Positions 19-26,953 of a stretch of 64,000 bases of DNA are shown one piece after another; the stretch's first letter is position 1; every line of letters begins with the position of its first letter. The notes beneath the pieces were generated by a model. That model saw only the letters and a list, made by a program, of their open reading frames with translations. It had not been told where the DNA came from and ran no database searches. The position numbers and the translations under genes were made by a program. The DNA lies in NCBI GenBank assembly GCA_016700035.1, contig CP064998.1:727551-791550 (forward strand), written 5' to 3'. The DNA is from a bacterium (GTDB taxonomy: Bacteria; Patescibacteriota; Saccharimonadia; CAILAD01; GCA-016700035).

Positions 19-3000
19 TTAATACCCAAATATTCCCTTCAGAGCATTAAGCACAATTGCAATCACACTATCTGACGCCTTGCCGATAACTGCCGATCTA
101 ACATCTCCTGAAGTTTCGTTACCCGCCCGATCTTTTGATAGTGGCTGCACACTATAGATATGTGACGTTGATAAGTCTGAAATAATTACAATGTGCTCGT
201 TAGACAATGCCGCATCCTCGCTGGTTCGGCTAGTAAACTGCTTGCGCCCTGAACCCTCGCCGTACGCTATTTGACTGGTCGCCGGTTCATCGGTGTACCA
301 AGAAACAACTATCTGCCCGCGAGCCTCTGCGCCTGTGCCACGGATAGCAGTTTCAACCTTCATACGACTTATTTTTGGGGGTCGGGTGTCGAGTGCCGTT
401 TTTAGTCGCTGAACATCGGACACCGCAAGGTTACCTCCCGCATCGCGAGATTCGGCAACCAATGAATACTCAGTGTCATCTATAAGATCATGAATAATTA
501 CTGTGTGTTCTGTCGTAAGTTTAGAGTCGCTAATCTCTTTTTGATAGCCGTCTTTTGGTGTGTAGCGCACCAAAGATGTTGTTGGCACGTTGGTAGTCCA
601 GCTCACCTGCTGGGTACTGGTTGGCTCTCCATCCATTGACTGATAACCTAGATTTAATATGCGCGGTCGTGCGGGAGTAGTGAAATTTAATACAGTACTA
701 CCCTGATACTCATTACCATCCGCATCATAGGTATTTAATCGATAGTCATATTTGGTTCCGTCATCTAAACCGACTAATTCAATTTCATAGGTGGACTCGG
801 AGAGTGATGTGGCAATTTCTTTTACGCCGCCAAAACTCGCTGACTTACCATACTGCACGACGACCCTAGCCGCCGACACAGAAGTAAAGCGGATTTGCGC
901 TGATGACAAGCCGACTCGAATTACAGATATATCCTGGGTGCTTGGTGCAGGCTGAGTCTTAAAGCTAAACTCGCTAGAAAGCCCGGTGTTACCATCTTCG
1001 TCGGTCCACGAAGCCTTGGCATAATAGGTGGTTCCAGCAGTCAAGTTGTTAAGCGAAACAGCATGATCGGTTACTTGAGCGTTACTTGCCACCTGAAACG
1101 GGTCATACTCACCAGACTTAGTGCCGATGGAAATCTTACTATCGCTAGCACGGTCGGTCGACCATCTAACCTTAGCCTTCTTGGACGTAATATCCAGCAG
1201 TACGGGTTGGCTCGTGATATTTGCCGGCTCCGTAAACTTGCCTGTCGGTGTATCGTCCACAGTAGCACTATTGGCACCACAGTTGTTGGCACTGTCACAA
1301 GCTTTAATGCGGTAATAGTATTTTTGTGAAGACAGCCCACCATCAACATGACTCGTACCGGTCGTGGTGGCCACTTGGCTAAAATTATTGTTGTCAGTAG
1401 AACGATAAATCCGGTAGCTGCCTATGCCCGCTCCGATATCCGTGGGCTCATTCCACGACAGAGCCAGGCGCCAAGTGCCGGATGTCTTGATGGAAACATC
1501 GGCAATATCTACGTTCAGTGGCATACCCGGAGCTGAAGTATTAGCAGTAAAGGTTACACTAGCAGCGGTAGCGTAGTTGATGTTGCCAGCTTCATCTTTA
1601 GCCACCACATAAAATGTATTATCACCTGGCTGAGTGGCGTAGGCACCTGCCGGCAGACTGGTAACGCCGCCGGCCGTAAAGGTACAGCTAGTGTTTGTTG
1701 GAATAGTATTAATACTGTAACAATACGTTAAATTGCCGGCCGAACCCTGGTAAGAGCTTGGAGCAGCCCAGGAAAAGGCAAAGCTATTAGTGGTGTTAGA
1801 GGCGGGTGTGGCACTCACATTTTGCGGGCTACTGGGTGAGATGGTATTAATTTTAATCACTGTCGTTACACTTGTGGCACTCACATTGCCGGCCTCATCC
1901 CAAGTCCTGAAATATACTACATTATTGCCTTCGCTCAGGTTGGCGTAATCAGGCGGGTCGGTAGTAGTGTATGAGCCATCATTGGCCAGCAGGTCGGAAT
2001 TATCTTGACTGCCAGTATGGCCATCTCCGTACCAAGTTGTGTTGCCTATTTTGTACTGCAGACCCTCCAGCCCAGAGTTAGTATCATTCGGGGCATCACC
2101 ACCGCTAGTAGGCCAAGTTAGGGTAACATTTTTTGAGGCGACAAACTGAGATGGGGCACTAATAAAGCTTGGATTGTTTGGCGGAGTATTATCAAATCGA
2201 AAACTGAACTGAGCTAGCGCGCCAGCATAGACATTGCCGGCATTATCAATCGCCCGGATACTTAAGTAGTATGGACTATTGGACGAAGTTAGAGCAGTCT
2301 GCAGATAGCCACTAGTCGCTAGATCTACATTAGTGGTACTAACTGCAAACTGGCAGTCTCCGTCGGTATTAATTGGACTAGCCCCCAGTAGCCCCTTGGT
2401 CGTGACTGGATTGGCAGTATTGTCTTGGCCAAGATACAAGCAGTAACCCTGAATACCCGAACCGCCCGAGTTATCCGTACCAGAATCCCATTCAAAGTAC
2501 GGGCTCACCCCGTTGGTCCAGGCGTTAGACGCAACGTTACTGCCACCGGCCACTCTTTTCATACTAAGATTGCTGGCATTAGTAACTGGCGGATCAATGT
2601 CCCATGGATCGTACTGAATAGCCACATCCTGCAGAGTGGGCGTAGTACCATTATCTACATTTAGAGTAACCTGGTATTGCACATAGCGATGATCATTGCT
2701 AACACAGCTCTGACCAGTTAAGTCAGCACCACTAGCAATACCGGTGCAGCCAGTAAAGGCTGGAGCGCCACTCATACCAGGATCGTTACTGGTACGTACC
2801 TTGACTGTCGTAAAGCTAGGCTTATCGGTAGTGTAGGTCAAAGTGTCCCAGTCGCCACCGTAACCAAGGTCAAAGACATTTGAAGTCAGAGTACCAGAAG
2901 TAAACTCATACAGAAAGACATTATCTATATAGATGGTTTTACCGGCAGTCACCTGCACACCGTACTTTTGACTTGCGGCCACCCCAGCAACTGTAGCTGT

Positions 3001-4761
3001 TAGCTTATACCATCCAGGAGTCGAAGTTGCAGTATAGGTTGTACTAACCGCACTCGATCCAACATACAAACTAGCATCTGCACTCGTAACGGCAGTCCCG
3101 TTGGTGTAGACATAAGCTTCTAGCGTATAGGAGTTGGTGTTGCCAACATTATACTGCTGGTATAAGGTGCCGACCCCACCGGTGGTAATTGCTTTTGCGG
3201 CGCCAGTTGAGCCATTGTAAGCCTGAGTCGTTGATCGCGTTGCCCCATCTGTGGTATTAGAAAAAATTGAAATTGTACTGGCGTTGTAATTTGAAACTGC
3301 AATATCAATATCTCCATCAGAATCAAGATCTGCCGCACCTACACCATAGGCTCCATCACCAGCAGTAAACGTAGCCGTATTGCCAAACGTACCATCACCA
3401 TTATTCCTTCGGATATGCAAATTGTCGCTGAGATAATTCGCTACAATCAGGTCTGGGTGTTCATCGCCATCAATATTGACCACCTCCACCTCCCTAACTC
3501 CCGAGGCAACAGGATAATCCACTTTAGCAGCAAACGTGCCATCGCCATTGTTCTTAAATACAGATGCAGTATTATTACCTTCGTTAGTTGTTATTACATC
3601 TAGATCGTTATCGGCATCAATGTCTGCGACGTCTACAAAGTACGACCCAGTCGAACCATTTGTGTATGACACCATCGCGGCAAAGGTTCCATCGCCGTTG
3701 TTTTTGTGCACTCCAATGGTAGTACTGGTGTATTTAGTATTAACTGCATCGATGTCGCCGTCGCCATCGATGTCGCCGGTGGCAAGACCATATGAATTAC
3801 TACCCGCCGAATAAGCTACCCTCGCAGCATACGTACCGTCACCATTATTTTTGAATACTGATATGGTCCCACCATTATTGTTTGTGAGCACCACATCAAG
3901 ATCGGTATCACCATCAACATCTACCAAACTTATTTGTGATGGTGTTGAACCGGCGCTGTAGTCTACCTTGGCAACAAAAGTACCGTTACCGTTGTTCTTG
4001 AATACCGAAATACTCGAACCACTATAGTTGGCCGCCACTATATCCTTGTCGCCGTCACTATCAATGTCGCCTGTTTGCAAATCTGCCACCCCCCAACCGG
4101 CGCTGTAGTCTACCTTGGCAACAAAAGTACCGTTACCGTTGTTCTTGAATACCGAGACTGTTGACGATCCATAATTTGGCACAACAGCATCACTATCACC
4201 GTCATTATCAATATCACTCAGGCGCGCCGACTGTGGATTGGTCTGGGTGCTATAGTCAACCTTACTAGCTAGAGACGCCGAAGATGGCGTGAATTTCCAA
4301 TCTCCCATATTTGACTCAAACCCATTATTGGATAGCTTTTCACTATCGGGCAACGTGAGCTGTCCACTCGTTGAGCTTGTAATATTATTGATGCTTTGGA
4401 ACTGATTACTAGTACTACTGCCCTGTCCACCGCTCCAGTCAGTCTGGTTCCAGGTGCTAAAGGCGTTAGCGGGCTTTGCAAACTGAAGGACAACCAGTAC
4501 GGCAACGACAGTCCATAGGACAACTATGCCCCAGTGTACATGCTTATGATGGATGCCTCGATAACTCCAACTGTGCCACCGGACATACCGCTTTGAGCGA
4601 CTCATCATATAGGTGTGAGGCTTATGCGCAAGATGCTTATGAATAAATAAGTAAAGCCTAGAAAACCAGCGCCAGCGCAATAAGCTGGACCGAATGATGC
4701 CGGCTATCTTTTTGAAAAAATACGACGCGCGCCCTAAAACTCGCGCCATCCTCCGTGTCAT
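19..4761 (-). CDS. Giant membrane-anchored surface protein (1580 aa). It has a basic His/Arg/Lys-rich N-terminal leader and a single TM helix, then FG-GAP/VCBS-like beta-propeller repeats and a long run of fibronectin-III/Ig-like domains.
   Basis: Long uninterrupted ORF. Repeated units of the form SVFKNNGNGTFVAKVDYSAG...GDIDSDGD are FG-GAP/VCBS-like Ca-binding motifs. The region PGWYKLTAT...NTPPNNPSF...LTWPTSGGDA is Fn3-like and Ser/Thr/Asn-rich. The leader MTRRMARVLGRASYFFKK...HHKHVHWGIVVLWTVVAVLVVL is followed by a TM helix. The C-terminal ~1000 aa is closely similar to ORF 21684..25004. Confidence 0.7.
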   Translation of the reverse strand: MTRRMARVLGRASYFFKKIAGIIRSSLLRWRWFSRLYLFIHKHLAHKPHTYMMSRSKRYVRWHSWSYRGIHHKHVHWGIVVLWTVVAVLVVLQFAKPANAFSTWNQTDWSGGQGSSTSNQFQSINNITSSTSGQLTLPDSEKLSNNGFESNMGDWKFTPSSASLASKVDYSTQTNPQSARLSDIDNDGDSDAVVPNYGSSTVSVFKNNGNGTFVAKVDYSAGWGVADLQTGDIDSDGDKDIVAANYSGSSISVFKNNGNGTFVAKVDYSAGSTPSQISLVDVDGDTDLDVVLTNNNGGTISVFKNNGDGTYAARVAYSAGSNSYGLATGDIDGDGDIDAVNTKYTSTTIGVHKNNGDGTFAAMVSYTNGSTGSYFVDVADIDADNDLDVITTNEGNNTASVFKNNGDGTFAAKVDYPVASGVREVEVVNIDGDEHPDLIVANYLSDNLHIRRNNGDGTFGNTATFTAGDGAYGVGAADLDSDGDIDIAVSNYNASTISIFSNTTDGATRSTTQAYNGSTGAAKAITTGGVGTLYQQYNVGNTNSYTLEAYVYTNGTAVTSADASLYVGSSAVSTTYTATSTPGWYKLTATVAGVAASQKYGVQVTAGKTIYIDNVFLYEFTSGTLTSNVFDLGYGGDWDTLTYTTDKPSFTTVKVRTSNDPGMSGAPAFTGCTGIASGADLTGQSCVSNDHRYVQYQVTLNVDNGTTPTLQDVAIQYDPWDIDPPVTNASNLSMKRVAGGSNVASNAWTNGVSPYFEWDSGTDNSGGSGIQGYCLYLGQDNTANPVTTKGLLGASPINTDGDCQFAVSTTNVDLATSGYLQTALTSSNSPYYLSIRAIDNAGNVYAGALAQFSFRFDNTPPNNPSFISAPSQFVASKNVTLTWPTSGGDAPNDTNSGLEGLQYKIGNTTWYGDGHTGSQDNSDLLANDGSYTTTDPPDYANLSEGNNVVYFRTWDEAGNVSATSVTTVIKINTISPSSPQNVSATPASNTTNSFAFSWAAPSSYQGSAGNLTYCYSINTIPTNTSCTFTAGGVTSLPAGAYATQPGDNTFYVVAKDEAGNINYATAASVTFTANTSAPGMPLNVDIADVSIKTSGTWRLALSWNEPTDIGAGIGSYRIYRSTDNNNFSQVATTTGTSHVDGGLSSQKYYYRIKACDSANNCGANSATVDDTPTGKFTEPANITSQPVLLDITSKKAKVRWSTDRASDSKISIGTKSGEYDPFQVASNAQVTDHAVSLNNLTAGTTYYAKASWTDEDGNTGLSSEFSFKTQPAPSTQDISVIRVGLSSAQIRFTSVSAARVVVQYGKSASFGGVKEIATSLSESTYEIELVGLDDGTKYDYRLNTYDADGNEYQGSTVLNFTTPARPRILNLGYQSMDGEPTSTQQVSWTTNVPTTSLVRYTPKDGYQKEISDSKLTTEHTVIIHDLIDDTEYSLVAESRDAGGNLAVSDVQRLKTALDTRPPKISRMKVETAIRGTGAEARGQIVVSWYTDEPATSQIAYGEGSGRKQFTSRTSEDAALSNEHIVIISDLSTSHIYSVQPLSKDRAGNETSGDVRSAVIGKASDSVIAIVLNALKGIFGY
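3948..4155. repeat. Two identical 61-bp intragenic direct repeats (3948-4008 and 4095-4155), 147 bp apart, inside the FG-GAP repeat region of the giant surface-protein gene.
   Basis: The string aaccggcgctgtagtctaccttggcaacaaaagtaccgttaccgttgttcttgaataccga occurs verbatim at both positions. The spacing equals 49 codons, one protein repeat unit. Confidence 0.8.
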
Positions 4762-5115: not shown

Positions 5116-5146
5116 AAAAACGCCCAAGACGAGCTTGGGCGTTTTT
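5116..5146 (-). terminator. Intrinsic terminator hairpin (A5, stem cgcccaag/cttgggcg, T5). On the minus strand it sits immediately 3' of the tRNA-Glu remnant (attL), so it is probably the ancestral tRNA-Glu terminator.
   Basis: Sequence aaaaacgcccaagacgagcttgggcgttttt forms a perfect 8-bp GC-rich stem flanked by A and T runs, so it is bidirectional in form. It directly abuts the 19-bp tRNA 3'-end repeat. Confidence 0.6.
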
Positions 5147-5164
5147 GGTGACCCCACGGGGAAT
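5146..5164. repeat. attL: a 19-bp direct repeat (tggtgaccccacggggaat) identical to the 3' end of tRNA-Glu at 30474-30492, T-arm 3' half plus acceptor stem plus CCA.
   Basis: An exact 19-mer occurs at both coordinates. Flanks diverge immediately on both sides. The partner copy lies inside a tRNA next to a serine recombinase gene. Confidence 0.7.
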
Positions 5165-5424: not shown

Positions 5425-5898
5425 ATGATGTTTAGGAGACACACTAAGCGATACCAAACTGACCTGTTCAATCAGAACACATTCGATAAACCGTTTTTAC
5501 GAGATTTACACAACTGCCGAGAAAGCCTGATTATAGAAAGCCCGTTTATACGATCAAAGCGAGTTGAGGCTCTAATGCCCATACTCTCTAGGCTCCGCAG
5601 ACGTAATGTAAAAGTGACTATCAACACTCGTAACCCTATTGAGCATGATTATGAGTACCGACTGCAAGCCGAGCAGTCTATTGAGATGTTCCAAGCCCTC
5701 GATATTCAGGTACTTTATACGGTACGCCATCATAGAAAACTAGCAATTATTGACCGCTCAGTCATTTGGGAGGGTAGCCTTAATATTCTCTCTTATTACG
5801 ATAGTTGTGAGATAATGAGGCGGACAGCTTCTGCATATGATGCAGAAAGGCTGATTAAATTTATTGGACTGCAAAAGTATTTGCAGCGTGTGAGTTAA
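5425..5898 (+). CDS. Phospholipase-D superfamily single-HKD nuclease (Nuc-like endonuclease), 157 aa.
   Basis: The motif HxKx4Dx6GSxN is present as HRKLAIIDRSVIWEGSLN. The ~155-aa single-HKD size is typical of Nuc-family nucleases on conjugative plasmids. Confidence 0.65.
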   Translation: MMFRRHTKRYQTDLFNQNTFDKPFLRDLHNCRESLIIESPFIRSKRVEALMPILSRLRRRNVKVTINTRNPIEHDYEYRLQAEQSIEMFQALDIQVLYTVRHHRKLAIIDRSVIWEGSLNILSYYDSCEIMRRTASAYDAERLIKFIGLQKYLQRVS

Positions 5899-5902
5899 AA
5901 CT

Positions 5903-6139
5903 ATGTTAGACAAGAATGATTTTCAGAAAGTAAATCTATCCAAGGATGAAGAAGCTATAGCCAAGGCTATTAACTTGTTGAAGTACCATGACCCAGAGAA
6001 CGCAACCAGGGAAAATGCAATCTCGTACCTTGAATATATGTTCACAGCCGCAGAGTGGGCCAGCAAGCAAACTGATCTTACTTTTGATGACTTTTACGAA
6101 AAATATAGGGCAGAACAAGCAAAGAAATCTGGCAGTTAA
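5903..6139 (+). CDS. Hypothetical small acidic protein (78 aa).
   Basis: ORF immediately downstream of the PLD gene on the same strand. No recognisable motif. Confidence 0.3.
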   Translation: MLDKNDFQKVNLSKDEEAIAKAINLLKYHDPENATRENAISYLEYMFTAAEWASKQTDLTFDDFYEKYRAEQAKKSGS

Positions 6140-8721
6140 CCTGCGACTTCTTCAATTCCTAATCCTTGAGTGACAAGCTCAGGCTCTTTGGTAGCCTCCT
6201 CTTTAGATGTCTTGGGCTTACTGACTGGTTTGGTTTTCTTCGGTTCCTGTTTCTTGGCAAATGTTTCTTGTGAATGCTTTATAGCCCGCTTCGCAATCTT
6301 CACACTACCCTCATCTTCAAGTAATAAAGTTTGACCGGATAACGGTTCTTGAGAACGAACGGCAGACAACTTGGCATAGAAGTTATAGGCTGGTAAGTTA
6401 CTCATCTCGCCTGGCTCAATATACGGTGCAAATAACGGCAGTAGTAACCGTTCATCTTCAGGGTTACCACTCCTAAAACTAATGACTGTACCGACATTGG
6501 CTAAGATTATACTGACCATCTGTTGGTCTTTCTGCTGTGAAGTAGATTGCTCAGCCATGACCATGAACATTTTATATTTCCTCGCCTCAGATAGCATCTG
6601 TACAAATGAAGCGGTGGCAAAGTTTTGGAACTCATCAACATACAGATAGAAATGACGACGTTCTTTTTGAGGTATGCGAGCCCGGCGCAGACTTGCCAGC
6701 TGGAGTTTAGCCAGTACAGTAATACCAAACAGCTCTGAAGTATCTTCACCAAGCAGCCCTTTAGAAAAGTTACAAATCAGTATTTTGCCACTATTGATAA
6801 TGTCATCAAAATCAATTGTAGACTTTGGCTGTTCAAGCACTTGACGAGCAGAGGCCGAGAATAGAAATCGACCAATCTTAGCCGTAATACCGGCTGCCAT
6901 CTTTACTTTCTGCATATCACCAGCTTTGCCAAGTTCATTCTTCCAGAAGTTAATCAGGTTTTTGTCTTTTAGGTTCTTGAGCACCGCTTTTCTATACTTC
7001 GTGTCATTGAGTAAATCAAAGACCGTAAATAAGGTCGCATCCTCAATTGTTAAGGCCGTCTGAATGGTGTTACGTAGGACATATTCAATACGGTGTCCGC
7101 CAGTATCTTCCTCAGAGAATATTTTACGGAACACTGATATGACCGACTCCGTAATAAGGTCTTTCTCTCTAAGCAGCTCATTTCCAGAGATACCAGGCGT
7201 CAGTTCCAAGAGATTAAGCCCAAGCGGGTACTCTAGGTCGTCAGGATTAAAGTAGACTACATCATTCACTCGTTCTGGCGGTACATGTCTGAGTAGCGTT
7301 TCCGCCATGTCACCGTGTGGGTCAACCACGGCTAAGCCTTTCCCACTTTCCATATCCTGCACAATCGAGTACTGCATGATGGTCGTTTTACCGTTACCCG
7401 TACCACCAATAATATAGACGTGGCGTTCACGCTCAGCTTCAACTAAACCAATTGGTGTCTGAACTCCATGGTGAATATTCTCACCTAAGATTACATCAAG
7501 CACCTTGCTTTGCTTCAGCGAAACTGGTGCTGGCAAAGTTCGGCTTAATGAAGTAATCAGGTTATCTGTTTTACTGATGCTACTTGAGGGAAAGTGATAC
7601 AAACTCGCCACTTCAGCAGCCGACAATATGAGTGATCGTTTTTTGAACAGACTCGGTAGTCGCACATTGGCCAGCCTTTTCTGATAACCCGCTATCAATG
7701 GTAATCGTAATTTGGTGCGCAGTGCCTGATACGGCGGCATCGAGTAGCCGTCAAGAGCCGATCGTAGCGCCTCAAGCTGCTGTGTAGCGTGGTCACTGCT
7801 AGCCAGTACCCGCAAGCTAACCTGGAATAATGGCTGGGTGACTTTTTGGTGCATTGATTCCATCAGCTCCAATTCAAAGGCGCTGAGGGTTCTAGCTGGT
7901 CGCTGGCGTTTTTGGACTTGCGCCTGGAACGCAGCGTCCTTACTCGACTTGTCCTTATAGTAAGAGGAGGTAGAGCCGTTATAGACTTCGCCGATTGTAT
8001 CAGTCACCCCAATCATGGCACTACCCAGTAGTTCGCTTATCTTACCAACCTTAGAGAAACCACCCAAGGAAACTTTGCGAAGTATATCTTCGTTGCCTAA
8101 TATCCGACGAGACAACCGTGAGGCTTCATTAAGTTTGACTGGAGTCACCACTAACTGCATGGTCAACTGCTCATCGTCACTGAGTTTTGTCATAGCCGCA
8201 GTGACGTAAGACAGTGGGTCATGCTGCTCAAAAGTACGAGTAGACATCAGCGGCAGCACGTAGTGGTGGGCTTGCTTAAATTCAATGACGTTTGCTGGGT
8301 CAAATGGCTGGTAGTCGATAGGTTTTACTTTGGCATCAGGAATGTAGGCAGTAATAGTTTTCTCAAGAATATCTGCTCGTGTTTGCTCAACCTGTATAAG
8401 GTAGCGAATCCCGTCTCGTTTGGTGGAAACTATCTCAAAACTTAGTACTGGCGTTCGATCAAGCAACCGCTCTTTCAGTGAGCGAGCAGCCCGTAAGCCA
8501 TGTATGACCGAAAACAATTGTATGGTCGATTCTGGTGTTTTCTCGAGTTGAGCTGGTGGTGTCAGCTCTAGCCAGACCATTACTCGCCGTTTAAGATAGC
8601 GGCGGTTGATAACTACTCTCACGAGGGCAATAAACCAATAGAGTACAAACAGTAGCAGTAGCCCAGCCAGCACAAACAGACACAAGCGAATTATGGTTGC
8701 GAAATAGGCTGAGGTGTCCAC
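6136..8721 (-). CDS. Type IV coupling protein (VirD4/TraG/TcpA-like ATPase), 861 aa.
   Basis: N-terminal TM helices. Walker A YIIGGTGNGKTT, then AVVDPHGD. Walker B YLYVDEFQNF. The motif ARKYKMFMVMAEQSTSQ is typical of T4CP/TraG-family proteins. Confidence 0.7.
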   Translation of the reverse strand: MDTSAYFATIIRLCLFVLAGLLLLFVLYWFIALVRVVINRRYLKRRVMVWLELTPPAQLEKTPESTIQLFSVIHGLRAARSLKERLLDRTPVLSFEIVSTKRDGIRYLIQVEQTRADILEKTITAYIPDAKVKPIDYQPFDPANVIEFKQAHHYVLPLMSTRTFEQHDPLSYVTAAMTKLSDDEQLTMQLVVTPVKLNEASRLSRRILGNEDILRKVSLGGFSKVGKISELLGSAMIGVTDTIGEVYNGSTSSYYKDKSSKDAAFQAQVQKRQRPARTLSAFELELMESMHQKVTQPLFQVSLRVLASSDHATQQLEALRSALDGYSMPPYQALRTKLRLPLIAGYQKRLANVRLPSLFKKRSLILSAAEVASLYHFPSSSISKTDNLITSLSRTLPAPVSLKQSKVLDVILGENIHHGVQTPIGLVEAERERHVYIIGGTGNGKTTIMQYSIVQDMESGKGLAVVDPHGDMAETLLRHVPPERVNDVVYFNPDDLEYPLGLNLLELTPGISGNELLREKDLITESVISVFRKIFSEEDTGGHRIEYVLRNTIQTALTIEDATLFTVFDLLNDTKYRKAVLKNLKDKNLINFWKNELGKAGDMQKVKMAAGITAKIGRFLFSASARQVLEQPKSTIDFDDIINSGKILICNFSKGLLGEDTSELFGITVLAKLQLASLRRARIPQKERRHFYLYVDEFQNFATASFVQMLSEARKYKMFMVMAEQSTSQQKDQQMVSIILANVGTVISFRSGNPEDERLLLPLFAPYIEPGEMSNLPAYNFYAKLSAVRSQEPLSGQTLLLEDEGSVKIAKRAIKHSQETFAKKQEPKKTKPVSKPKTSKEEATKEPELVTQGLGIEEVAG

Positions 8722-17331: not shown

Positions 17332-17437
17332 ACTAAAGCTCATCTAAGGATATTCGAAGATACCTTAATGGGCATACCAGATACATATCATGGTCAATTT
17401 CAGTAGATTGAGTTGTGGTAGCTTCCTTGCACAATAC

Positions 17438-18601: not shown

Positions 18602-18671
18602 TACAGGGGCGCCTTTCTTTTTAATAAGGTTAGTAAACCCAATAATGAATCTTTCCCACTTAAGATAAGAA

Positions 18672-18842: not shown

Positions 18843-18998
18843 AGGCCGCTTTTCTTTTTATTGAGCCCGATTAAGATATGTCAGAAACTTAGGCATTTAA
18901 TCTTCCAAGGCTAAACCAAAAAACTGAACCACTAAAAAAGAGCATAGTATCGACAAAAAGCTCAACGGCAGCTCTCAATGTTTTAGATTTACTCTCCA

Positions 18999-19167
18999 CT
19001 CATGCAGGCCTACATTGACGGCTCAAGCTACAACCTTACTTCCACCGCTGCGGCCCACTGGAGTTTGACTCAGAACTCGGTATCGAATGCGTGGTTCATG
19101 AACCTTAGTCTTGGCACCACGGATGCCATCGGTAAGACGAATACCCGCTCTGTCCGTTGCGTCCGGT
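18999..19167 (+). repeat. VR-like cassette 5 (plus strand), immediately upstream of the RT gene.
   Basis: It encodes MQAYIDGSSYNLTSTAAAHWSLTQNSVSNAWFMNLSLGTTDAIGKTNTRSVRCVRY. It belongs to the agt ttg act subfamily together with cassettes 2 to 4. Confidence 0.65.
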
Positions 19168-19225
19168 ATCGAACTATTGGTTTGTATGGGGTAGATTTAT
19201 GCTGTAGGTCTCGTACACTTTAGAT

Positions 19226-20341
19226 ATGGATACGTACTTCACGTTTGCAAACTTGCACCAGGCCTATTTAGATTGTAAAAAATACAAAAATCAAACTTTT
19301 TATCATCAAAAATTTGCCTACGACCTCGAGAAAAACCTGTCTAAGTTGGAACTCGATCTTGTAAATCGCACCTACCGGCCTGAACGTTCGATTGCCTTTG
19401 TGGTGACACAACCAAAAATTCGTGAAATTTTTGCGGCCGACTTCCGAGATCGTGTCATTCACCACTTGTTGTATAACTACTTGGCACCAGTGTTTGAACC
19501 ACGTTTTATCTATGATTCGTGGGCCTGCCGTCCGGCAAAAGGCACCCATGGGGCAATGCTGCGCTTGCAGCAATTTACTCGGAAAGTAAGTCAGAATCGC
19601 CGTTCTCGTGATTGTTACTACCTCAAGATGGACATAAAAAGCTTCTTTACCAGTATCGATAAACACATTCTGTACCAGCTGGTTGAACGCCGAGTCAAAA
19701 ACAAGGAAATCCGCTGGCTAGCACACGTTAACATCTTCCATGACTGTGCTCGTGACATCCCGCCACGTATCCAGAGTGCACCAACTCTTTTTGATAGTCT
19801 CCCACTAGACAAATCGCTGTTTACCGTCGAACCAGGCAAGGGGCTACCAATTGGCAATCTAACGTCGCAGTTCTTTGCCAATGTTTACCTACATGAACTG
19901 GATGCCTTTGTGAAGCACCACTTAAAAGCCAGGTACTACGTCCGCTACGTCGATGATTTCGTGATAGTACATGAGGACCAAACAGTGCTCGAACGCTACA
20001 AGCAGGAAATTACCGAGTTTGTCTGGCAGCGCCTGCGCTTAAAGGTTCACCCTGGCAAAGTGTTTATCCGCCCGATTAGCGACGGCATTGACTTTGTTGG
20101 CTACGTGGTACGCCCCGACTATATTTTAATCCGTCGGCGGGTCGTCGGTGAGTGGCGTAGGCGTATGGAGCAGGCCGCTACTCCTGACCAGCAGCAGACA
20201 ATTTACCACTCCTACCAAGCCCATGCCCGCTGGGCTGATTCACATAAACTACAGCGGGTCATGCGCAAACGATTACCAGATGTAGAAACAGTATATTCCA
20301 ATCCACCAATGAGCCTGAACGAGCCAGTACGAACTAGCTAG
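19226..20341 (+). CDS. DGR reverse transcriptase (371 aa).
   Basis: RT motif 4 appears in the DGR-specific form PIGNLTSQFFANVYL. Catalytic YVDD is present (VRYVDDFVIV). Gene order is Avd, TR, then RT. Confidence 0.85.
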   Translation: MDTYFTFANLHQAYLDCKKYKNQTFYHQKFAYDLEKNLSKLELDLVNRTYRPERSIAFVVTQPKIREIFAADFRDRVIHHLLYNYLAPVFEPRFIYDSWACRPAKGTHGAMLRLQQFTRKVSQNRRSRDCYYLKMDIKSFFTSIDKHILYQLVERRVKNKEIRWLAHVNIFHDCARDIPPRIQSAPTLFDSLPLDKSLFTVEPGKGLPIGNLTSQFFANVYLHELDAFVKHHLKARYYVRYVDDFVIVHEDQTVLERYKQEITEFVWQRLRLKVHPGKVFIRPISDGIDFVGYVVRPDYILIRRRVVGEWRRRMEQAATPDQQQTIYHSYQAHARWADSHKLQRVMRKRLPDVETVYSNPPMSLNEPVRTS

Positions 20342-21585
20342 CGTTTAGTTGTAAAGATTGTTTGAAACAGTCTGTCTTTGGCTTGTTGCATAGCAACTGC
20401 CCAAGCTGTATCGCTCTCAGCATACGCTATGGTATCCATCTGCGTAAAGCTAATACCTGGCTTGAGATAGGTTTCAGCTTTTGGCAGTGACTTTAGTTTC
20501 TCATACGGTACCATATAGCCCTTGGCTGGGTAGTGGTATGTACGCTTGCCAGTCTTTGTATCAACCTCGGTTTCTCGGTAACCGCAGGGTCTGTGGAAAT
20601 TGAGGTAGGGCACAAACCAATCACGGTACCAATCGTTAATCTCGGGTGCGTGTTCTCTAGGTATGTGGGCATAGCCTAATGCCTTACGGATAATACTGCC
20701 ATTCTTGGTCTCCACTAGGCCATTATCTCCACTCTGGTAGGCTCGTGACTTACTGAGTTTAATCAACATGGTCTTGAGCAGAACAGCAACCTGCTTGTTG
20801 ATGTACTCTGAGCCATTGTCAGCATGGAACTCGGTAAGCTGAAATGGGAATAGCGCAAGAGCTACTTCAAGTGCTGGTAGCATATAGCGTTCAGTGATCC
20901 GTTCTACTGCCACTACTACCTCCCACTGAGTGACCTCATCTACTAGGTTTATGTGGTACACCCCTTTCTGTTTGTCCATATCTCCTTGGTGTACTGTATC
21001 CACCCTAATGTAACCAGGACGGCCTTCAGGTCTTGGCTTTCGTCGCTCACCAATGGCTACGGCTGTAGCTTGGGTGCGTGTAAATGTTAGAGACTGGTTA
21101 CGGTAACCGATGCTACTACGTAGGTTGTAGATATGACTGACAGAAATACCCGCCAATCGCTGGTAACGTTCATCACCAAACCGTACATAGGCCCGAATAC
21201 AGAGCTCCCGAGCAGCTTTGCCACTCAGCCGATCATGAACATTGTCAACTTCAGCCAAGGCAGTACAATCCTCGGCTGTGTAGCGTAAAGCAAACTGATT
21301 ACGGCTATTGGTAGGTTCAAGGCGAAGCTGTCCGTTCTTAGCGTACTGGCTAATGAGCCGAGTAACCTGTGCTCGGCTGTAACCAGTCACTGCAATGGCA
21401 TAGGCTCGAACAATACCTTTGTCTGGTTTACTAAGTTTGAGATAGCTCTGCTGTACGAGTAGCTTTTGTAGCCACTCATAGGCCTCTATCTTACTGGTTG
21501 TTTTGCATTCCAGAGGACTAACAGCAGTGAACTGTCGCATCTCCTCCATGCTTGTGGTTACTGAAGCGTACATAGTGATAGTCAT
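20338..21585 (-). CDS. DDE transposase/integrase with an rve core, IS481-like family (415 aa). Its stop overlaps the RT stop.
   Basis: An N-terminal HTH-like region, then a catalytic core with ...HADNGSEYINKQ...LSKSRAYQSGDNGLVE.... This is the typical IS481/ISNCY rve-domain pattern. Confidence 0.65.
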   Translation of the reverse strand: MTITMYASVTTSMEEMRQFTAVSPLECKTTSKIEAYEWLQKLLVQQSYLKLSKPDKGIVRAYAIAVTGYSRAQVTRLISQYAKNGQLRLEPTNSRNQFALRYTAEDCTALAEVDNVHDRLSGKAARELCIRAYVRFGDERYQRLAGISVSHIYNLRSSIGYRNQSLTFTRTQATAVAIGERRKPRPEGRPGYIRVDTVHQGDMDKQKGVYHINLVDEVTQWEVVVAVERITERYMLPALEVALALFPFQLTEFHADNGSEYINKQVAVLLKTMLIKLSKSRAYQSGDNGLVETKNGSIIRKALGYAHIPREHAPEINDWYRDWFVPYLNFHRPCGYRETEVDTKTGKRTYHYPAKGYMVPYEKLKSLPKAETYLKPGISFTQMDTIAYAESDTAWAVAMQQAKDRLFQTIFTTKR

Positions 21586-21683
21586 ACCTCCATGCTAGAT
21601 CAGTTCGACCCTTCAGGCTCATACTGTTTTAGAACCCGATGCCTTGTTCAGGCTCATTTTGCTTTGGATAAGAGTGAAACTGT

Positions 21684-24600
21684 ATGATTAATTCTTCTTA
21701 TGGTACACTGAAAGACAAGGATTTTAAGCAAAGTATGTCTCAGGGTAAATTATATCGGTTCCACATTGGTCAAATCATACAAGCGCTGCGACAAGATGTA
21801 ATCGCACTCCTCAAGAAACTCGCAAAGCAGCCCAGTGTACGGTGGGTCAGAAACAAATTTCATAAGCTACACGTCCGCACCACCCAAAAAGTACATCACC
21901 ATACGACCAAGAAGTTACACGACCAGCTTTACCAGCGGGTTTCACTCTACGCTCGTCACTGGGAGTGGCGCTACCGTAAACATTTCCACGCTATTACAGT
22001 GTCACTGGTTGTTCTTGTGGTGGCCTTTAGCCTTGTCGCCAGCCATAAGCGGGCGTTGGCTAGCAGTGACATGCCGGTTACCGGCTACATAGCTGTTATG
22101 AATACCAACGAGAAAATCTACTTTGGCGGTGATCATGGCAGCAGCGTTACCCTAGATAACTTCACCCGCCAGATGGATGGTCATGCCTGGAGCCAAGATA
22201 TTGGCTGGGTTTCTTTTGGTACTGAGAGTAATCCTCAGGGACCAGTCACGGCTGGGGCTGATGGCGTTTTAAGCGGCAAGGCCAAAGCCCTCAACGTTGG
22301 TACGATCGACTTTGATGACTTTGGGTCGCATGTCGTGGTGTCTGATGGTCAGTTTTCGGGTTATGCCTGGAGTAATGACTTAGGCTGGCTGGATTTCAGC
22401 CATCTTGAAGCAGCCGGCTACGACCCTGATCTCGACCTGCCAGTCAACGCCAGCGATATTAACATCTACAAGAGTGATGGCGGTGCCAGCGTCGCTGAAA
22501 ACGGCTGGAATAATACTAATGGCTTCTTTACCTGGGAGCCCGCCACTGATGAATCTGGCGGTTCTGGTATCTTAGGCTACTGTTTGTATCTTGGCCAAGA
22601 CGAGAATGGTGACCCCGCCAGCAACAAAGGACTGCTTGGTAGTTCACCACTCAACACTAGCGGCAGCTGTCCGTTTGCGGTCCAAGATGCTCAAGTCAAT
22701 CTAGCCACGGCCGGTTATATCGCAACCGCTATGACTACCTCGGATGAACCATATTACCTGCGGATTAAAGCTATAGATAACGCCAAGAACATCTACGACG
22801 GTGAAGCAGCTGGTACCCATTTCCGCTATGACAATACGCCGCCAACCAATCCGGCCTTTATTACTGCTCCATCCCAGTTTGTGGCTTCCAAGAATGTCAC
22901 CTTGACCTGGCCAACCTCTGGCGGTGATGCAGCCCAAGATGCTAACTCAGGTATTAAAGGGCTTCAGTATCGGATTGGTAATAGCGGCACCTGGTACGGT
23001 GATGGCCACAGCGGCAGTCAGAACATCAGCGACCTGCTAGTCAACGATGGTAGTTACACGACCGTTGACCCCATTGATTACGACCAACTGCAAGAGGGCA
23101 ACAACATTGTGGCTTTCCGTACCTACGATGAAGCCGGTAACATTTCAATCGCTAATATTACGACGGTGATTAAGCTCAACACCAGTTCACCGTCAGCGCC
23201 GCAGAACTTGTCAGCCTCACCACCAACTAACACCGTCAACAGCTTCTCGTTTAACTGGTTAGCACCAGCCAGTTTCCAAGGTTCAGTTAGTGCCATTAGC
23301 TACTGTTACACGATTAACGTCGCTCCAACCAGCAGCAACTGTAGCTTTACCGCCCCAGGCGTTACCAGCCTGTCAGCTGGCCCATATGCGACTCAGCCAG
23401 GCAGTAACACCATATACGTGGTCGCTCGTGACGAAGCTGGCAACATTAACTACGCCACCGCCGCCACTGAGACATTCTCAGCCAACACCTCAGCCCCTGG
23501 CGTACCACTCAATGTCGATGTCGCTGATATCAGTGTTAAGAACACCAGCAACTGGAAGCTAACGGTTGCCTGGGAACCACCAACCAATGTCGGTGCTGGG
23601 GTCAGCAGCTACCGAGTGCTGCGCTCGACTGACAACAGTAGCTTTACTCAAGTTGCTACCACTGCCGGTACTAGCTATGTCGATACGGGCTTAAGCCAAA
23701 TCGCCTACTACTACAAGATTCAGGCTTGTGATAGTGCCAATAACTGTGGAGCTGCCAGCGCAACTGCTAGTCAAACACCAACTGGGCGCTTTACCACGCC
23801 AGCTGGCCTGGTTTCCAGCCCATCCGTCACCGTCAAATCCCGCTCAGCTCGTATTACGTGGGCAACAGATCGTAATAGCGACAGTCGTATTCAGCTCGGT
23901 ACTAGCTCCGGCAGCTACTTTGACGCTGAGACTGCCAAGTCCAACCAGACCAAGAACCATGTGATTGAGTTGAATAACCTTGAGGCTGATACTCAGTACT
24001 TCTACAAAGCTCGCTGGACAGATGAGGACGGCAACACTGGTAGCAGCAGCGAACTGGTCTTTAAGACGTTGCCAGCTCCAACCGTCAAAGATGTATCGAC
24101 CAGGCGGATTAACTTAAGCTCGGCAATTGTCCAGTTCACCTCCAAAGACGCTGTTCGGGTAAAAGTCTACTACGGTCCCAACGAGAGCTTTGGTGGTGTT
24201 ACGACCGTCAATACTTCCACCAGTGAATCTGCCTATACCGTCGAACTGGCCGGACTGAGTGACGGCACTAAATATTTCTACAAGATTAATACTATTGACT
24301 CTGACGGCAACGAGTACAATAGCAACCGAATTGACAGCTTCGTGACTCCTGCCCGACCACGGATTACCAATGTCCAGTTCCAACCGGTGACTGGTCAGCC
24401 TACTAGCACCCAGAAAATAACCTGGGAAACCAATGTGGCCTCCACTTCATTGATTCGCTACAAGACCAATGGTGAACCCCAGAAAGAAGTCAGTAACTCT
24501 GAGTTAACCCGCAACCACAGCATCACGATTGAGGGACTACTGGATGATAGTGTCTACAGCTTAACTGCCGAGTCACGGGACAGTTTAGGTAATCTGGCAA

Positions 24601-25004
24601 CCTCCGACGCTCAAACTTTCCGGACCGAACTTGATACTCGCTCACCAGAAGTCAGCCGACTAAAGGTAGAAACATCGATTCGAGGAGTTGGCAGTGACGC
24701 TCGAGGCCAGCTGATCGTGTCCTGGCGGACTGACGAACCAGCCACCAGCCAAGTTGCCTATGACAAGGGTGCCTCTGGCACGAACTACGCCTCCAGTACG
24801 GCCGAGGATGGGGCTTTGACCACCGAACACATGGTTATTATCTCTGATCTCGATACTTCCCAGGTTTTCCACTTGCAAGCCATTTCACGAGATAAAAGCG
24901 GCAACAGCGGTAAGAGTGATGACCGAGCAGCCATTATTGGTCAACCAAGTGATAGCGTCATCGATATTATCCTAGGCACGTTGGAGAGGATATTTGGCCT
25001 ATGA
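21684..25004 (+). CDS. Giant surface-protein paralogue (1106 aa): basic His/Lys-rich leader, TM helix, then Fn3-like repeats. The C-terminal ~1000 aa are collinear with ORF 19..4761.
   Basis: Blocks shared with ORF 19..4761 include GLLGSSP.NT.G.C.FAV..., YDNTPPTNPAFITAPSQFVASKNVTLTWPTSGGDA and the C-terminal SDSVIDIILGTLERIFGL. The leader is ...KLHVRTTQKVHHHTTKKLHDQ... followed by a TM helix. Confidence 0.7.
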   Translation: MINSSYGTLKDKDFKQSMSQGKLYRFHIGQIIQALRQDVIALLKKLAKQPSVRWVRNKFHKLHVRTTQKVHHHTTKKLHDQLYQRVSLYARHWEWRYRKHFHAITVSLVVLVVAFSLVASHKRALASSDMPVTGYIAVMNTNEKIYFGGDHGSSVTLDNFTRQMDGHAWSQDIGWVSFGTESNPQGPVTAGADGVLSGKAKALNVGTIDFDDFGSHVVVSDGQFSGYAWSNDLGWLDFSHLEAAGYDPDLDLPVNASDINIYKSDGGASVAENGWNNTNGFFTWEPATDESGGSGILGYCLYLGQDENGDPASNKGLLGSSPLNTSGSCPFAVQDAQVNLATAGYIATAMTTSDEPYYLRIKAIDNAKNIYDGEAAGTHFRYDNTPPTNPAFITAPSQFVASKNVTLTWPTSGGDAAQDANSGIKGLQYRIGNSGTWYGDGHSGSQNISDLLVNDGSYTTVDPIDYDQLQEGNNIVAFRTYDEAGNISIANITTVIKLNTSSPSAPQNLSASPPTNTVNSFSFNWLAPASFQGSVSAISYCYTINVAPTSSNCSFTAPGVTSLSAGPYATQPGSNTIYVVARDEAGNINYATAATETFSANTSAPGVPLNVDVADISVKNTSNWKLTVAWEPPTNVGAGVSSYRVLRSTDNSSFTQVATTAGTSYVDTGLSQIAYYYKIQACDSANNCGAASATASQTPTGRFTTPAGLVSSPSVTVKSRSARITWATDRNSDSRIQLGTSSGSYFDAETAKSNQTKNHVIELNNLEADTQYFYKARWTDEDGNTGSSSELVFKTLPAPTVKDVSTRRINLSSAIVQFTSKDAVRVKVYYGPNESFGGVTTVNTSTSESAYTVELAGLSDGTKYFYKINTIDSDGNEYNSNRIDSFVTPARPRITNVQFQPVTGQPTSTQKITWETNVASTSLIRYKTNGEPQKEVSNSELTRNHSITIEGLLDDSVYSLTAESRDSLGNLATSDAQTFRTELDTRSPEVSRLKVETSIRGVGSDARGQLIVSWRTDEPATSQVAYDKGASGTNYASSTAEDGALTTEHMVIISDLDTSQVFHLQAISRDKSGNSGKSDDRAAIIGQPSDSVIDIILGTLERIFGL

Positions 25005-26953
25005 GTCGCACCACCCCACCACTGATTGAGGCCAACCACGTCAGTAAAGATTTTGTGCTCAACAACCAAAATCTGAACGTCTTAAAAGACATTAGCTTCA
25101 ACGTGCCAGATGGTAGTTTCACAATTATTCATGGTCCATCGGGCAGCGGTAAGACTACTCTGCTTAACACCATTACTGGTATGGAAGCGCCAACCTCTGG
25201 GGTAGTTAAGTACGAAGGCAAAGATATCTATGAACTCAGTGAGAGTGAACTAGCTCATTTTCGGGCTAAGACCATGGGTATCGTCTACCAGTCCAACTAC
25301 TGGGTGCCATCGCTCAACATCCTGGAAAATGTTGCCTTGCCGCTCTATTTCTTAGGCTATGACCGGGCCAACGCTGAACGTGAAGCCCAAGAGTCGCTGC
25401 GTCGAGTTGGCATGGAAGAACACAAGCACACGCTGCCAATCCTGCTATCTGGTGGTGAGCAGCAGCGAGTGGCAATGGCTCGGGCGCTGGTCAGTAATCC
25501 AAACTATATCGTGGCTGATGAGCCAACCGGCAATCTAGACAGTAAAAACGGTGACAATATTATTGCGCTGCTGCAATACTTCCACCAAAAGCTCGACCGC
25601 ACGATTATTTTAGTCACCCATAACGAAAGCTACTTGAAATACGGCACTCAGGTACTCAGCCTCAAAGATGGCAAGATTGAAGAATCTACCTCAAAGAGAC
25701 CGAAACAGGCCACCAGCACCGCCCTACCAACTAACTCGGCCAAGTTTATGTCGGTGATTCAAAACCTCAAGCCAATTAAGTTACGCATGTTGACCCATAT
25801 GGCGCTGGCCAACCTAAAGTTTAAGCGTTTCCGAAGCAGCCTGACGATTTTAGGTGTCACCATTGGTATTGGCTCCGTCTTTTTGCTGTTGTCGTTTGGC
25901 CTGGGGTTGCAATCGCTCGTCCAAAAGCAGATTATTGGCACCGATTCAGTCAAGGTGATCAATGTGTCCAGTGCCAACTCAGAACTGCTGAAGCTGGATG
26001 ATACGGCTCTAGGGCGTTTTAATAACATCGGTGGTATTGAGAAGATTGGGAAACAGAATACATCAGCTGGGGCGTTTAAGATAGATTCAGCCAATTCGGA
26101 TGCCGTAGTTTACGGAGTAGATAAGAACTTCCTGGAGCTCAGTAACGTTAACCTCGCAGCTGGCAAGCAACTCAATCCGGATTCATCGAGTGAGTTGCTT
26201 ATAACCAAGTCACTGCTGAATTCAATGGGCTACGAAGATGCCAACAAAGCCCTCCAAAAACAAGTCAGTGTAAGTTTGAAGCTGGATGATGGTGAGAAGT
26301 CATTCGATCAGGCCTTTACGATTGTCGGCGTGATTGACGCTGGTAACAGTTCAGCCCTCTACATTCCGCAAGCCGACTTCTCGGCCATTGGCGTGAAAGA
26401 ATACAAACAGGTTAAAGTAGTCGCTCGAGACCAAAATGATGTAGGCACTATCCGCCAACAGCTAGAGACATTTGGCTACCAAACCTCCTCACCCCTCGAT
26501 ACCCTAGCCCAGGTCAACCGCTTCTTTAACTTCTTTAACGTGATTCTAGTCGGCTTTGGTGGCATTGGTATGTTTATTGCCGTAATTGGTATGGTCAATA
26601 CCTTAACTATTGCACTGGTGGAACGAACCAAAGAGATTGGCCTGATGATTGCTCTAGGCGCTCGCCGTCAAGACATGCGTCGACTGTTCATTACCGAATC
26701 GCTTCTCTTGTCACTCATCGGTGGCTTCATTGGGGTAATTGCGGCTATCGGCTTTGGCGCAGTGATTAATGAACTCCTGAAATACGTGTCAGCTCGTCGT
26801 GGTATTACCGAGAGTTTCTCACTATTTGCCACACCGATCTGGCTAATTCTACTGACTATCGGTTTTATGTGCGGAGTTGGCTATGTAGTTTCTTATCTTC
26901 CAGCCAGACGAGCAGGACGCATCAACCCGATTGACGCTCTGCGGCGGGAGTAA
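25001..26953 (+). CDS. MacB-type ABC transporter: a fused N-terminal ATPase and C-terminal FtsX-family permease (650 aa). Translationally coupled to the giant protein (ATGA overlap).
   Basis: Walker A GPSGSGKTTLLN. ABC signature LSGGEQQRVAMARAL. Walker B IVADEPTGNLD. Then one TM, a large extracytoplasmic domain and three C-terminal TM helices, which is FtsX-like. Confidence 0.75.
   Translation: MSRTTPPLIEANHVSKDFVLNNQNLNVLKDISFNVPDGSFTIIHGPSGSGKTTLLNTITGMEAPTSGVVKYEGKDIYELSESELAHFRAKTMGIVYQSNYWVPSLNILENVALPLYFLGYDRANAEREAQESLRRVGMEEHKHTLPILLSGGEQQRVAMARALVSNPNYIVADEPTGNLDSKNGDNIIALLQYFHQKLDRTIILVTHNESYLKYGTQVLSLKDGKIEESTSKRPKQATSTALPTNSAKFMSVIQNLKPIKLRMLTHMALANLKFKRFRSSLTILGVTIGIGSVFLLLSFGLGLQSLVQKQIIGTDSVKVINVSSANSELLKLDDTALGRFNNIGGIEKIGKQNTSAGAFKIDSANSDAVVYGVDKNFLELSNVNLAAGKQLNPDSSSELLITKSLLNSMGYEDANKALQKQVSVSLKLDDGEKSFDQAFTIVGVIDAGNSSALYIPQADFSAIGVKEYKQVKVVARDQNDVGTIRQQLETFGYQTSSPLDTLAQVNRFFNFFNVILVGFGGIGMFIAVIGMVNTLTIALVERTKEIGLMIALGARRQDMRRLFITESLLLSLIGGFIGVIAAIGFGAVINELLKYVSARRGITESFSLFATPIWLILLTIGFMCGVGYVVSYLPARRAGRINPIDALRRE

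Follow-up and report, generated by a model that had tools for sequence, protein, structure and literature searches.

Giant fibrillar surface proteins of Saccharibacteria in a conserved cassette with a MacB-type ABC system: candidates for host attachment

The DNA analyzed here is a stretch of 64,000 nucleotides from a Saccharimonadia (Patescibacteria) genome (GenBank assembly GCA_016700035.1, contig CP064998.1, positions 727,551 to 791,550 of the forward strand), which we call the window and in which all positions are counted from its first letter. It carries two large open reading frames (ORFs), A and B, both belonging to a large family of giant, fibrillar proteins on the surface of Saccharimonadia. 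Behind B lies a gene for an ATP-binding cassette (ABC) protein, and behind A the putative beginning of another. The parts of A, of B and of the adjoining genes are as follows.

1-15, minus: first five codons, ATG AGT GGC GGA GTT (MSGGV), of the gene after A, a putative ABC ATPase start
19-4761, minus: ORF A, 1580 aa (QQS26788.1), giant surface protein with an FG-GAP propeller head
22-93, minus: tail motif of A, AVIGKASDSVIAIVLNALKGIFGY, amphipathic helix
94-2622, minus: stalk of A (residues 714-1556), tandem domains resembling immunoglobulin (Ig) and fibronectin type III (FnIII) domains
3202-4254, minus: head of A, seven FG-GAP blades of 49 aa each, predicted seven-bladed beta-propeller
3948-4008 and 4095-4155: exact 61-bp direct repeat in A, 147 nt apart, in two adjacent blades
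4387-4461, minus: mature N-terminal motif of A, STWNQTDWSGGQGSSTSNQF, conserved, directly after the predicted cleavage site
4462-4533, minus: hydrophobic core of A (residues 77-94) and A-x-A c-region ANA↓FS, predicted cleavage after A100
4534-4761, minus: leader (n-region) of A, residues 1-76, motif HKHLAHKPH..(9)..Y..WH.W....HHKHVH
21684-25004, plus: ORF B, 1106 aa (QQS26805.1), short-headed paralogue, cargo of a conjugative element
21684-21989, plus: leader of B, residues 1-102, motif HHHTTKKLH..(9)..Y..HWEW....KHFH
21990-22061, plus: hydrophobic core of B and c-region ALA↓SS, predicted cleavage after A126
22062-22418, plus: head of B, small all-beta domain with two G[YH]AWS.D.GW..F repeats
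22419-24929, plus: stalk of B, about ten beta-sandwich domains
24930-25001, plus: tail motif of B, AIIGQPSDSVIDIILGTLERIFGL, helix at residues 1090-1104 in the AlphaFold2 (AF2) model, with low pLDDT (predicted local distance difference test score)
25001-26953, plus: fused ABC protein of predicted type VII, 650 aa, its ATG overlapping the TGA of B
25001-25705: nucleotide-binding domain (NBD) of the fused ABC protein
25835-26470: its MacB periplasmic core
26555-26929: its FtsX transmembrane domain

Residues 714-1579 of A and 243-1105 of B are 60% identical across 867 aa (BLASTP, E = 0), which bears out the paralogy with a collinear C-terminal region that an earlier note on this DNA had proposed. 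The leaders of the two proteins also align with each other (BLASTP, E = 9e-6), and the near-identical C-termini seen in that note are real, A ending in ...SDSVIAIVLNALKGIFGY and B in ...SDSVIDIILGTLERIFGL. Its description of both proteins as FG-GAP proteins has to be corrected for B, since Pfam places FG-GAP in A only; B gives fn3, Pur_ac_phosph_N and Ig-like matches, and fn3 and Pur_ac_phosph_N matches are also found in the stalk of A. A protein search returned more than 270 relatives of B, with E = 0 for all 120 matches listed, and the few that carry a name at the source are fibronectin type III or VCBS proteins of Saccharibacteria. The C-terminal region of about 860 aa is common to all relatives listed, and it is the heads in front of it that differ.

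The fused ABC protein behind B has Pfam matches to ABC_tran (9.5e-32), to MacB_PCD (2.8e-21, residues 279-490, covering profile positions 1-206 of 207) and to FtsX (5.1e-19, residues 519-643). The motifs of its NBD are intact (Walker A GPSGSGKTT, signature LSGGEQQRVAMARAL, Walker B IVADEPTGNLD), and residues 8-650 align end to end with MacB 5LIL (E = 2.7e-66). With an NBD on the one hand and MacB_PCD plus an FtsX bundle on the other, the product of 25001-26953 is, by its predicted domains, a type VII ABC protein of the MacB/FtsX/LolCE fold. The ATGA in which the stop of B and the start of this gene overlap, with GGAGAGG 11 nt 5' of the ATG, confirms that B and a MacB-type gene are translationally coupled. 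The claim that only one of the two copies is coupled to a MacB-type gene holds for B and probably fails for A. The gene that begins 3 nt past the TAA of A, and runs off the window edge with five codons visible, starts MSGGV, and the ATPases behind the nearest FG-GAP-type relatives (loci L021, L023, L019 and L026) start MSGG[IL] at the same position. Because MSGGV matches the ATPase starts of its closest relatives, A would have an ABC partner of its own beyond the window edge.

The generality of this arrangement was surveyed in 78 loci from different Saccharibacteria genomes, whose ORFs were searched with the MacB protein and the stalk of the window. In 82 of the 86 complete family genes, an ABC ATPase gene on the same strand follows within a few nucleotides of the stop, and a MacB_PCD/FtsX permease gene comes next. 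The most frequent spacing between family gene and ATPase is +1 or +2 nt, with an ATGA overlap in 12 genes and a 1-nt overlap in 7. Of the four genes that depart from this pattern, two are the upstream members of tandem pairs in which both genes use a single transporter, one lies at a contig end, and one is in a convergent arrangement. The association with MacB, whose absence from related genomes would have spoken against the earlier proposal, is therefore conserved. In several contigs, two complete cassettes follow one another and both have a transporter, in keeping with a structural partnership of one to one, and in a divergent branch of the family the layout of gene, ATPase and permease occurs twice on one contig (L080). 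The relationship also holds in the reverse direction, all four chosen permease homologues (45-55% identical) being located directly after a family gene and an ATPase. The cassette permeases form a tight group scoring at least 290 bits, as against 62-108 bits for other MacB-like pairs in those loci. It is only in the lineage of B that the transporter is fused; elsewhere ATPase and permease are separate. No membrane-fusion protein, sortase or any other gene is conserved beside the cassette across the 78 loci. The pairing of the family with an intact type VII ABC system is obligatory, translationally coupled and reciprocal.

With respect to the neighborhood of the cassette, genes for a response regulator and a histidine kinase are found up to about 4 kb away (about 3-4 kb downstream of the permease) in 16-18 of the 78 loci, in variable orientation. 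There are no two-component genes near the cassette in the window.

Both proteins begin with a strongly basic leader. The first 77 residues of A contain 35% K+R+H and not a single acidic residue (pI 12), and the first 100 or so residues of B contain 30% K+R+H, compared with about 7% outside the leaders in both. A single hydrophobic helix follows the leader in both proteins, and in the AF2 model of B the leader and transmembrane (TM) helices are at residues 25-47, 50-85 and 87-120. Twenty-seven diverged leaders can be aligned to a common pattern, HHH.A.RPH..L......Y.[RK]WH.W...H.HVH, followed by a hydrophobic core of about 20 aa and A-x-A; one position is always His and another always Tyr in these homologues, and Trp, His and the Ala at -1 are conserved in at least 90%. 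The leader of A fits this alignment, with H49 and Y59 at the invariant positions and W62 and H76 at near-invariant ones. The leader could have been an annotation artifact, with the true starts downstream at the hydrophobic helix, but the alignment of its motif in 27 homologues argues against this, as does the lack of any ATG, GTG or TTG between codons 18 and 106 of B, of which codon 106 is already within the hydrophobic core. In A, an alternative start at M52/M53 would split the conserved leader motif in half. With the leader not an artifact and the MacB association conserved, the core finding of the earlier note survives. The leader had been described there as cytoplasmic and followed by a TM helix; the basic stretch and the hydrophobic helix stand, and the near-invariant small residue at -1 of the A-x-A motif makes the leader better read as a lineage-specific extended signal peptide with a putative A-x-A cleavage site.

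The leader is not found throughout the family. Of the 155 members in which a TM segment could be detected, about half have its motif, as a conserved basic helix of about 35 aa rich in His, Trp and Tyr that extends the signal peptide, and other members, including the nearest relatives of B and the group with RCC1 heads, have ordinary short signal peptides. With E <= 0.001 as threshold, a profile of the leader matched no more than 245 of 1.84 billion representative proteins. Among the classifiable matches, many belong to the family, either as complete proteins or as N-terminal fragments, and the long matches mostly carry the family stalk. Conserved basic extensions in front of a normal signal peptide are known from other giant adhesin-like proteins, namely ESPR in autotransporters and TpsA proteins, the KxYKxGKxW type of about 90 aa in serine-rich-repeat adhesins, and YSIRK. 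The leader described here differs from these in its motif and in its restriction to the Patescibacteria family of A and B. Scans with Pfam (E <= 0.01) and NCBIfam (E <= 1) matched it to no signal-peptide family, including ESPR (PF13018), KxYKxGKxW (TIGR03715) and YSIRK (TIGR01168), and no curated model of either database matched the leader or the tail. Judged by its motif, the leader is thus analogous to the ESPR and KxYKxGKxW classes, yet a member of neither. Behind the predicted cleavage site, most subfamilies carry a motif of about 20 aa, S-T-W-x-Q-x-D-W-S-G-G-x-G-x-S-T-x-N-Q-Y, whatever their head type; B-type and LamG-type members have different conserved mature N-termini.

At the other end of the protein, 86 of the 87 complete genes of the family in other genomes encode the tail motif, with the consensus [ST]A-I-I-G-R-A-S-D-S-V-L-x-I-[IV]-[FL]-N-T-L-x-[KR]-[VI]-F-G and 1-6 further residues to the stop. 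In the aligned tails, F is conserved in 86 of 86, G in 78, I(-20) in 82 and L(-4) in 80, and the conservation at the level of residue identity includes the polar residues S-D-S, N and R. The low pLDDT of the terminal helix in the AF2 model of B suggests that it is not packed on the body of the protein. Since the helix is amphipathic, only 15-16 residues long and contains charged residues, it is not a membrane-spanning anchor, and the sortase motif LPXTG is absent from A (...IFGY), from B (...IFGL) and from the ends of 86 of 87 relatives. The divergent branch (P0153, P0187, P0215, P0238 and P0247; L080 1-15686), whose proteins reach 3086 aa, has a longer tail, ...SV[IL]DI[IV].NSLQ.S[LF]GW[IL]F..FK. 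Members with short signal peptides keep the transporter, such that the tail and not the leader is the constant companion of the ABC system. The tail may thus be the handle by which the ABC system holds the protein, because it always accompanies the transporter (the stalk being the only other element to do so), and also because it is located at the conserved end of the molecule and is conserved in residue identity, polar positions included.

Between these termini lie the head and a conserved stalk, which across the family measures about 860 aa and consists of about ten Ig/FnIII domains. The AF2 model of B (mean pLDDT 82.5) is all-beta from residue 128 to 1085, with pLDDT mostly 80-95, and in Foldseek this region resembles Ig/FnIII arrays such as MyBP-C, gp130 and the base of the Aureispira grappling hook. 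The similarity to the base of the latter's GhpA fiber (PDB 9fly; Foldseek E = 2e-17) calls for comment, since both would be long beta-sandwich fibers of cells that attach to other bacteria; however, a TM-score of 0.16-0.20 marks it as a generic Ig/FnIII match, there is no sequence relationship, and GhpA has no ABC partner.

The heads are of several kinds. In A, the FG-GAP_3 match (Pfam, E = 2.3e-42) and blade motifs at residues 204, 253, 302, 351, 401, 450 and 499 amount to the seven repeats of an FG-GAP/VCBS propeller of the integrin-alpha type, which B does not have. The small head of B (residues 127-245) was modeled with a pLDDT of 86.8 and a pTM (predicted template modeling score) of 0.78 and found no match in the PDB better than E = 0.2. 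Other members carry FG-GAP, LamG, DUF2341, RCC1 or F5/8C heads. The 61-bp intragenic repeat that had been noticed in A is exact, and its copies lie in adjacent FG-GAP units of 147 nt (49 aa). Recombination between them would add or remove precisely one blade in frame, though the resulting six- or eight-bladed product may misfold; the sole other cluster member of A on record is also 1580 aa long.

MacB-fold transporters (MacB, LolCDE, FtsEX, YbbAP) act by mechanotransmission at the outer face of the membrane and have no transmembrane path for a substrate. We infer that the fiber is exported by Sec and is then docked or otherwise handled, via its C-terminal helix, by the cognate type VII ABC system on the outer membrane face, where the latter could be an anchor, an actuator or an extractor, and not a transmembrane exporter. 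Within this frame, the reading that we favor, while giving it somewhat less than an even chance, is that the permease captures the tail helix, tethers the fiber and actuates it at the expense of ATP. Sec would carry the fiber protein over the membrane, and the leader would be cut off at A-x-A. The cognate permease dimer would then catch the tail helix, with a part that lies outside the cytoplasm or at the membrane interface, so that the conserved base of the stalk is tethered to the cell and the variable head projects toward host cells. ATP binding and hydrolysis in the cytoplasm would finally be relayed through the permease to the base of the fiber by mechanotransmission, and the fiber could thereby be loaded, tensioned or released.

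Several points weigh against capture and tethering by the tail. Tail and permease do share history when the stalk is taken into account (partial correlation 0.37, p = 0.001, Mantel test), but this is not specific to the tail, as the last three windows of the stalk give partial r values of 0.30-0.38 with the permease. Along the stalk, the shared history with the transporter climbs from 5' to 3', from a partial r of about -0.3 to +0.38 (loci L002-L079). Genetic linkage, along with an exchange of the 5' parts by recombination, accounts for the signal between tail and permease equally well. Furthermore, among the known type VII partners (EnvC, PcsB, LolA, TesA, MacA) we know of none that is bound via a single short C-terminal helix. 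A dedicated transporter for each adhesin is the rule in type 1 secretion as well, so that a one-to-one pairing alone does not prove anchoring. Finally, the family is apparently absent from the only Saccharibacterium with transposon sequencing (Tn-seq) data, Southlakia epibionticum, whose annotation tables contain no match to PF16656, and its Tn-seq data are for this reason not transferable to the family. The VCBS/FnIII "adhesins" SEML1_0890 and SEML1_0891 of this organism (Cell 2023, PMC10633639) are small, unrelated proteins.

The chief competitor of tethering by the tail helix, unlikely as we judge it, would be an extraction of the kind performed by Lol systems: after export by Sec, the C-terminal helix (or the signal anchor) would reside in the outer leaflet, and the type VII ABC system would use ATP to pull it out, upon which the fiber would be released or passed to the wall or a surface layer. 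This agrees with a transporter of the MacB/LolCDE fold that has a periplasmic core domain and with an amphipathic, moderately hydrophobic tail, and LolCDE and YbbAP are presented in two papers as extracting hydrophobic moieties from the membrane (PMC8333309, PMC12646458). However, neither A nor B has a lipobox Cys, and no gene for a LolA-like carrier or acceptor is conserved nearby in the 78 loci. A released fiber of 1000-2000 aa would also need some other attachment to the cell, and a wall-anchoring motif is absent. Moreover, the conserved polar residues of the tail (S-D-S, N and R) look more like a protein-protein interface than a lipid-embedded segment.

Three further explanations have less to recommend them. 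The fiber might be the ligand-binding antenna of a BceAB-like type VII ABC system that reports host contact to a two-component system. BceAB-type systems do signal via their permease, BceA is among the matches of the ATPase, and a response regulator and a histidine kinase lie near some of the cassettes, as described above; given that such genes are missing from most loci, the window included, and vary in orientation and distance where they occur, we hold this to be improbable. It is very improbable that the ABC system is a common pump for efflux or for resistance to antimicrobial peptides whose only link to the surface protein is a shared operon, as might be gathered from source annotations such as "ABC-type antimicrobial peptide transport system" or "macrolide transport", because start/stop overlaps or gaps of 1-2 nt have been kept in lineages diverged to about 50% identity, duplicated cassettes come with their own pumps, and all four permease homologues checked lie behind a family gene. 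The earlier note had favored a dedicated exporter, in which an uncleaved C-terminal secretion signal would direct the giant protein across the membrane through the ABC protein. The extreme C-terminal motif and the adjoining ABC gene do resemble operons of adhesins with RTX (repeats-in-toxin) sequences. Nevertheless, this is hardly credible in view of the N-terminal signal peptides with A-x-A in A, B and nearly all relatives, and of a partner that aligns end to end with MacB; it is thus MacB-type and not of the HlyB or PCAT type, and the MacB fold offers no transmembrane path to a substrate. RTX repeats are also absent (Pfam), and no membrane-fusion protein is conserved nearby.

How the cassette with its putatively tethered fiber relates to known systems can be seen from FtsEX, with its partners EnvC, PcsB, CwlO and RipC. 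Here, too, an ATPase and an FtsX-family permease act on a Sec-exported partner beyond the membrane with nothing crossing the bilayer, and the partners bind via helical elements, as we propose for the tail. In the cassette, however, the partner is an Ig/FnIII fiber of 1000-2100 aa with a binding head and not an activator of peptidoglycan hydrolases, the candidate handle is one short C-terminal helix and not a coiled coil, MacB_PCD is matched in full by the permease, and the genes lie side by side and occur in multiple copies in a genome. In Pfam, the partner matches only FG-GAP, fn3 and Ig-like models and no CHAP, LytM or coiled-coil model, and the AF2 model of B is all-beta except for the leader and TM helices and the terminal helix of 15 residues. 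MacB of MacAB-TolC (PDB 5LIL) has the same domain order and, in the lineage of B, the same fusion of NBD and permease. Unlike MacAB-TolC, the family has neither a MacA adaptor nor a TolC-like duct, its ATPase and permease are mostly separate genes, and the organism is monoderm-like; the 78 loci contain no conserved third gene, and the neighbor in the window is a convergent Replic_Relax gene. LolCDE and YbbAP-TesA share the fold, with a hydrophobic terminal element of an exported protein as a plausible substrate, but the family proteins have no lipobox (the cleavage regions ANA↓FST and ALA↓SSD contain no Cys) and hence no acyl chains, and no carrier gene lies nearby.

The giant RTX adhesins of type 1 secretion (LapA, SiiE, MpIBP) are similar in their giant stalk of tandem Ig-like domains, in their modules for ligand binding and in the conservation of their extreme C-terminus, and they are encoded beside an ABC gene dedicated to them. 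They differ from A and B, which have a Sec signal peptide with A-x-A, no RTX repeats (Pfam) and an ABC partner of another, MacB-type fold, and which are accompanied by no membrane-fusion or outer-membrane component. As judged from its predicted proteins, the cassette therefore lacks one defining feature each of MacAB-TolC, FtsEX-hydrolase systems, LolCDE, type 1 secretion and sortase anchoring. The "Pam" pilus of the candidate phyla radiation, described in a preprint, was considered as well and is a different system without an ABC component. A type VII ABC system with an extracytoplasmic partner is known; what is new here is the class of partner. In the literature, the family, its motifs and its ABC partner were undescribed as far as we found, though our coverage was incomplete and a prior description is possible. 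One source offers general remarks only, to the effect that large Patescibacteria proteins with adhesion domains may mediate contact with the host (PMC13059738).

The common terminal helix, together with the ABC system encoded directly behind the family genes, suggests a new way of holding or handling attachment fibers. A role of the family of A and B as adhesins is plausible from their architecture, and they would be concrete candidates for attachment to the host. To our knowledge, how ultrasmall episymbionts of this kind recognize and hold their hosts is largely unknown beyond type IV pili. If true, the strict one-to-one pairing of a MacB fold with a giant fiber would extend mechanotransmission to a new kind of partner, and a candidate handle of just 24 residues makes the hypothesis directly testable. 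Going further, one could speculate that the cassette represents a fifth functional class of type VII ABC systems, in which a machine of the MacB/FtsEX fold would be the membrane socket of a giant modular adhesin fiber, hold it by its C-terminal helix and, driven by ATP, actuate or release it. Combined with the lineage-specific extended signal peptide, rich in His and aromatic residues, and with exchangeable heads, the cassette would be the device by which environmental Saccharibacteria recognize their hosts and attach to them, and copies of it would spread on conjugative elements. This wider proposal is tentative, and we would sooner doubt it than subscribe to it. The heads, variable between lineages and apparently recombining, together with multiplied copies and carriage on a conjugative element, form the pattern expected of host-range determinants. 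The gradient of shared history along the stalk suggests a modular exchange of heads, in which heads and upstream stalk would have been exchanged between cassettes while the 3' end stayed with the transporter. Leader and tail are also simple and specific markers for annotation, as the proteins are now labeled "hypothetical", "VCBS repeat" or "fibronectin type III".

An integrative conjugative element of 25.3 kb (5146-30492), located at a tRNA-Glu gene, carries B and its MacB gene as cargo, and A lies outside it; the exact 19-nt direct repeats at its ends enclose B only, in agreement with the earlier placement of the two copies. The element contains the following features besides B and the fused ABC gene.

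5146-5164: left att repeat, TGGTGACCCCACGGGGAAT, exact 19-nt direct repeat
6136-8721: coupling protein
8691-9275: CHAP hydrolase
9272-11032: VirB4-like ATPase
11614-12117: PrgI
12114-14106: two pilins of the type IV secretion system (T4SS)
27091-27906: Replic_Relax (relaxase-like) gene, convergent, next gene after the fused ABC gene
28802-30514: large serine recombinase
30474-30492: right att repeat, identical to the 3' end of the tRNA-Glu gene (30474-30548, minus)

Within the element there is also a diversity-generating retroelement (DGR) at 14274-20341, with up to five copies resembling variable regions.

15016-15190: DGR variable-region-like copy
15840-16014, minus: DGR variable-region-like copy
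17434-17609, minus: DGR variable-region-like copy
17866-18222: bAvd
18477-18628: template repeat
18667-18841: DGR variable-region-like copy
18998-19168: DGR variable-region-like copy
19226-20341: reverse transcriptase

The copy at 15016-15190 forms the 3' end of an Lcl_C/DUF1566 gene, and mismatches to the template fall mostly at template adenines (15 of 17 in this copy). B itself was considered as a target of the DGR and rejected, as all variable regions are elsewhere. Cassettes of the short-headed B type are repeatedly found just downstream of an Lcl_C gene or a DGR (14274-25004 of the window; L003 5814-12943; L002; L004 9055-13213; L083 1-4265), and in L003 the reverse transcriptase gene ends 22 nt upstream of the family gene. 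Possibly, lectin-fold proteins diversified by the DGR cooperate with the nearly headless stalk of the B type. Between the DGR reverse transcriptase and B, the window carries a gene for an integrase of the rve family (20338-21585, minus). Related loci have nothing at this position, which makes it probable that the gene is an insertion sequence that landed in the module. At the left end of the element there is a small PLD-like (PLDc_2) gene (5425-5898). A close homologue of it adjoins a B-type cassette in L010 (8712-9191, E = 1.1e-48), and a weak PLDc_2 match lies near a B-type cassette in L083 (13357-14208).

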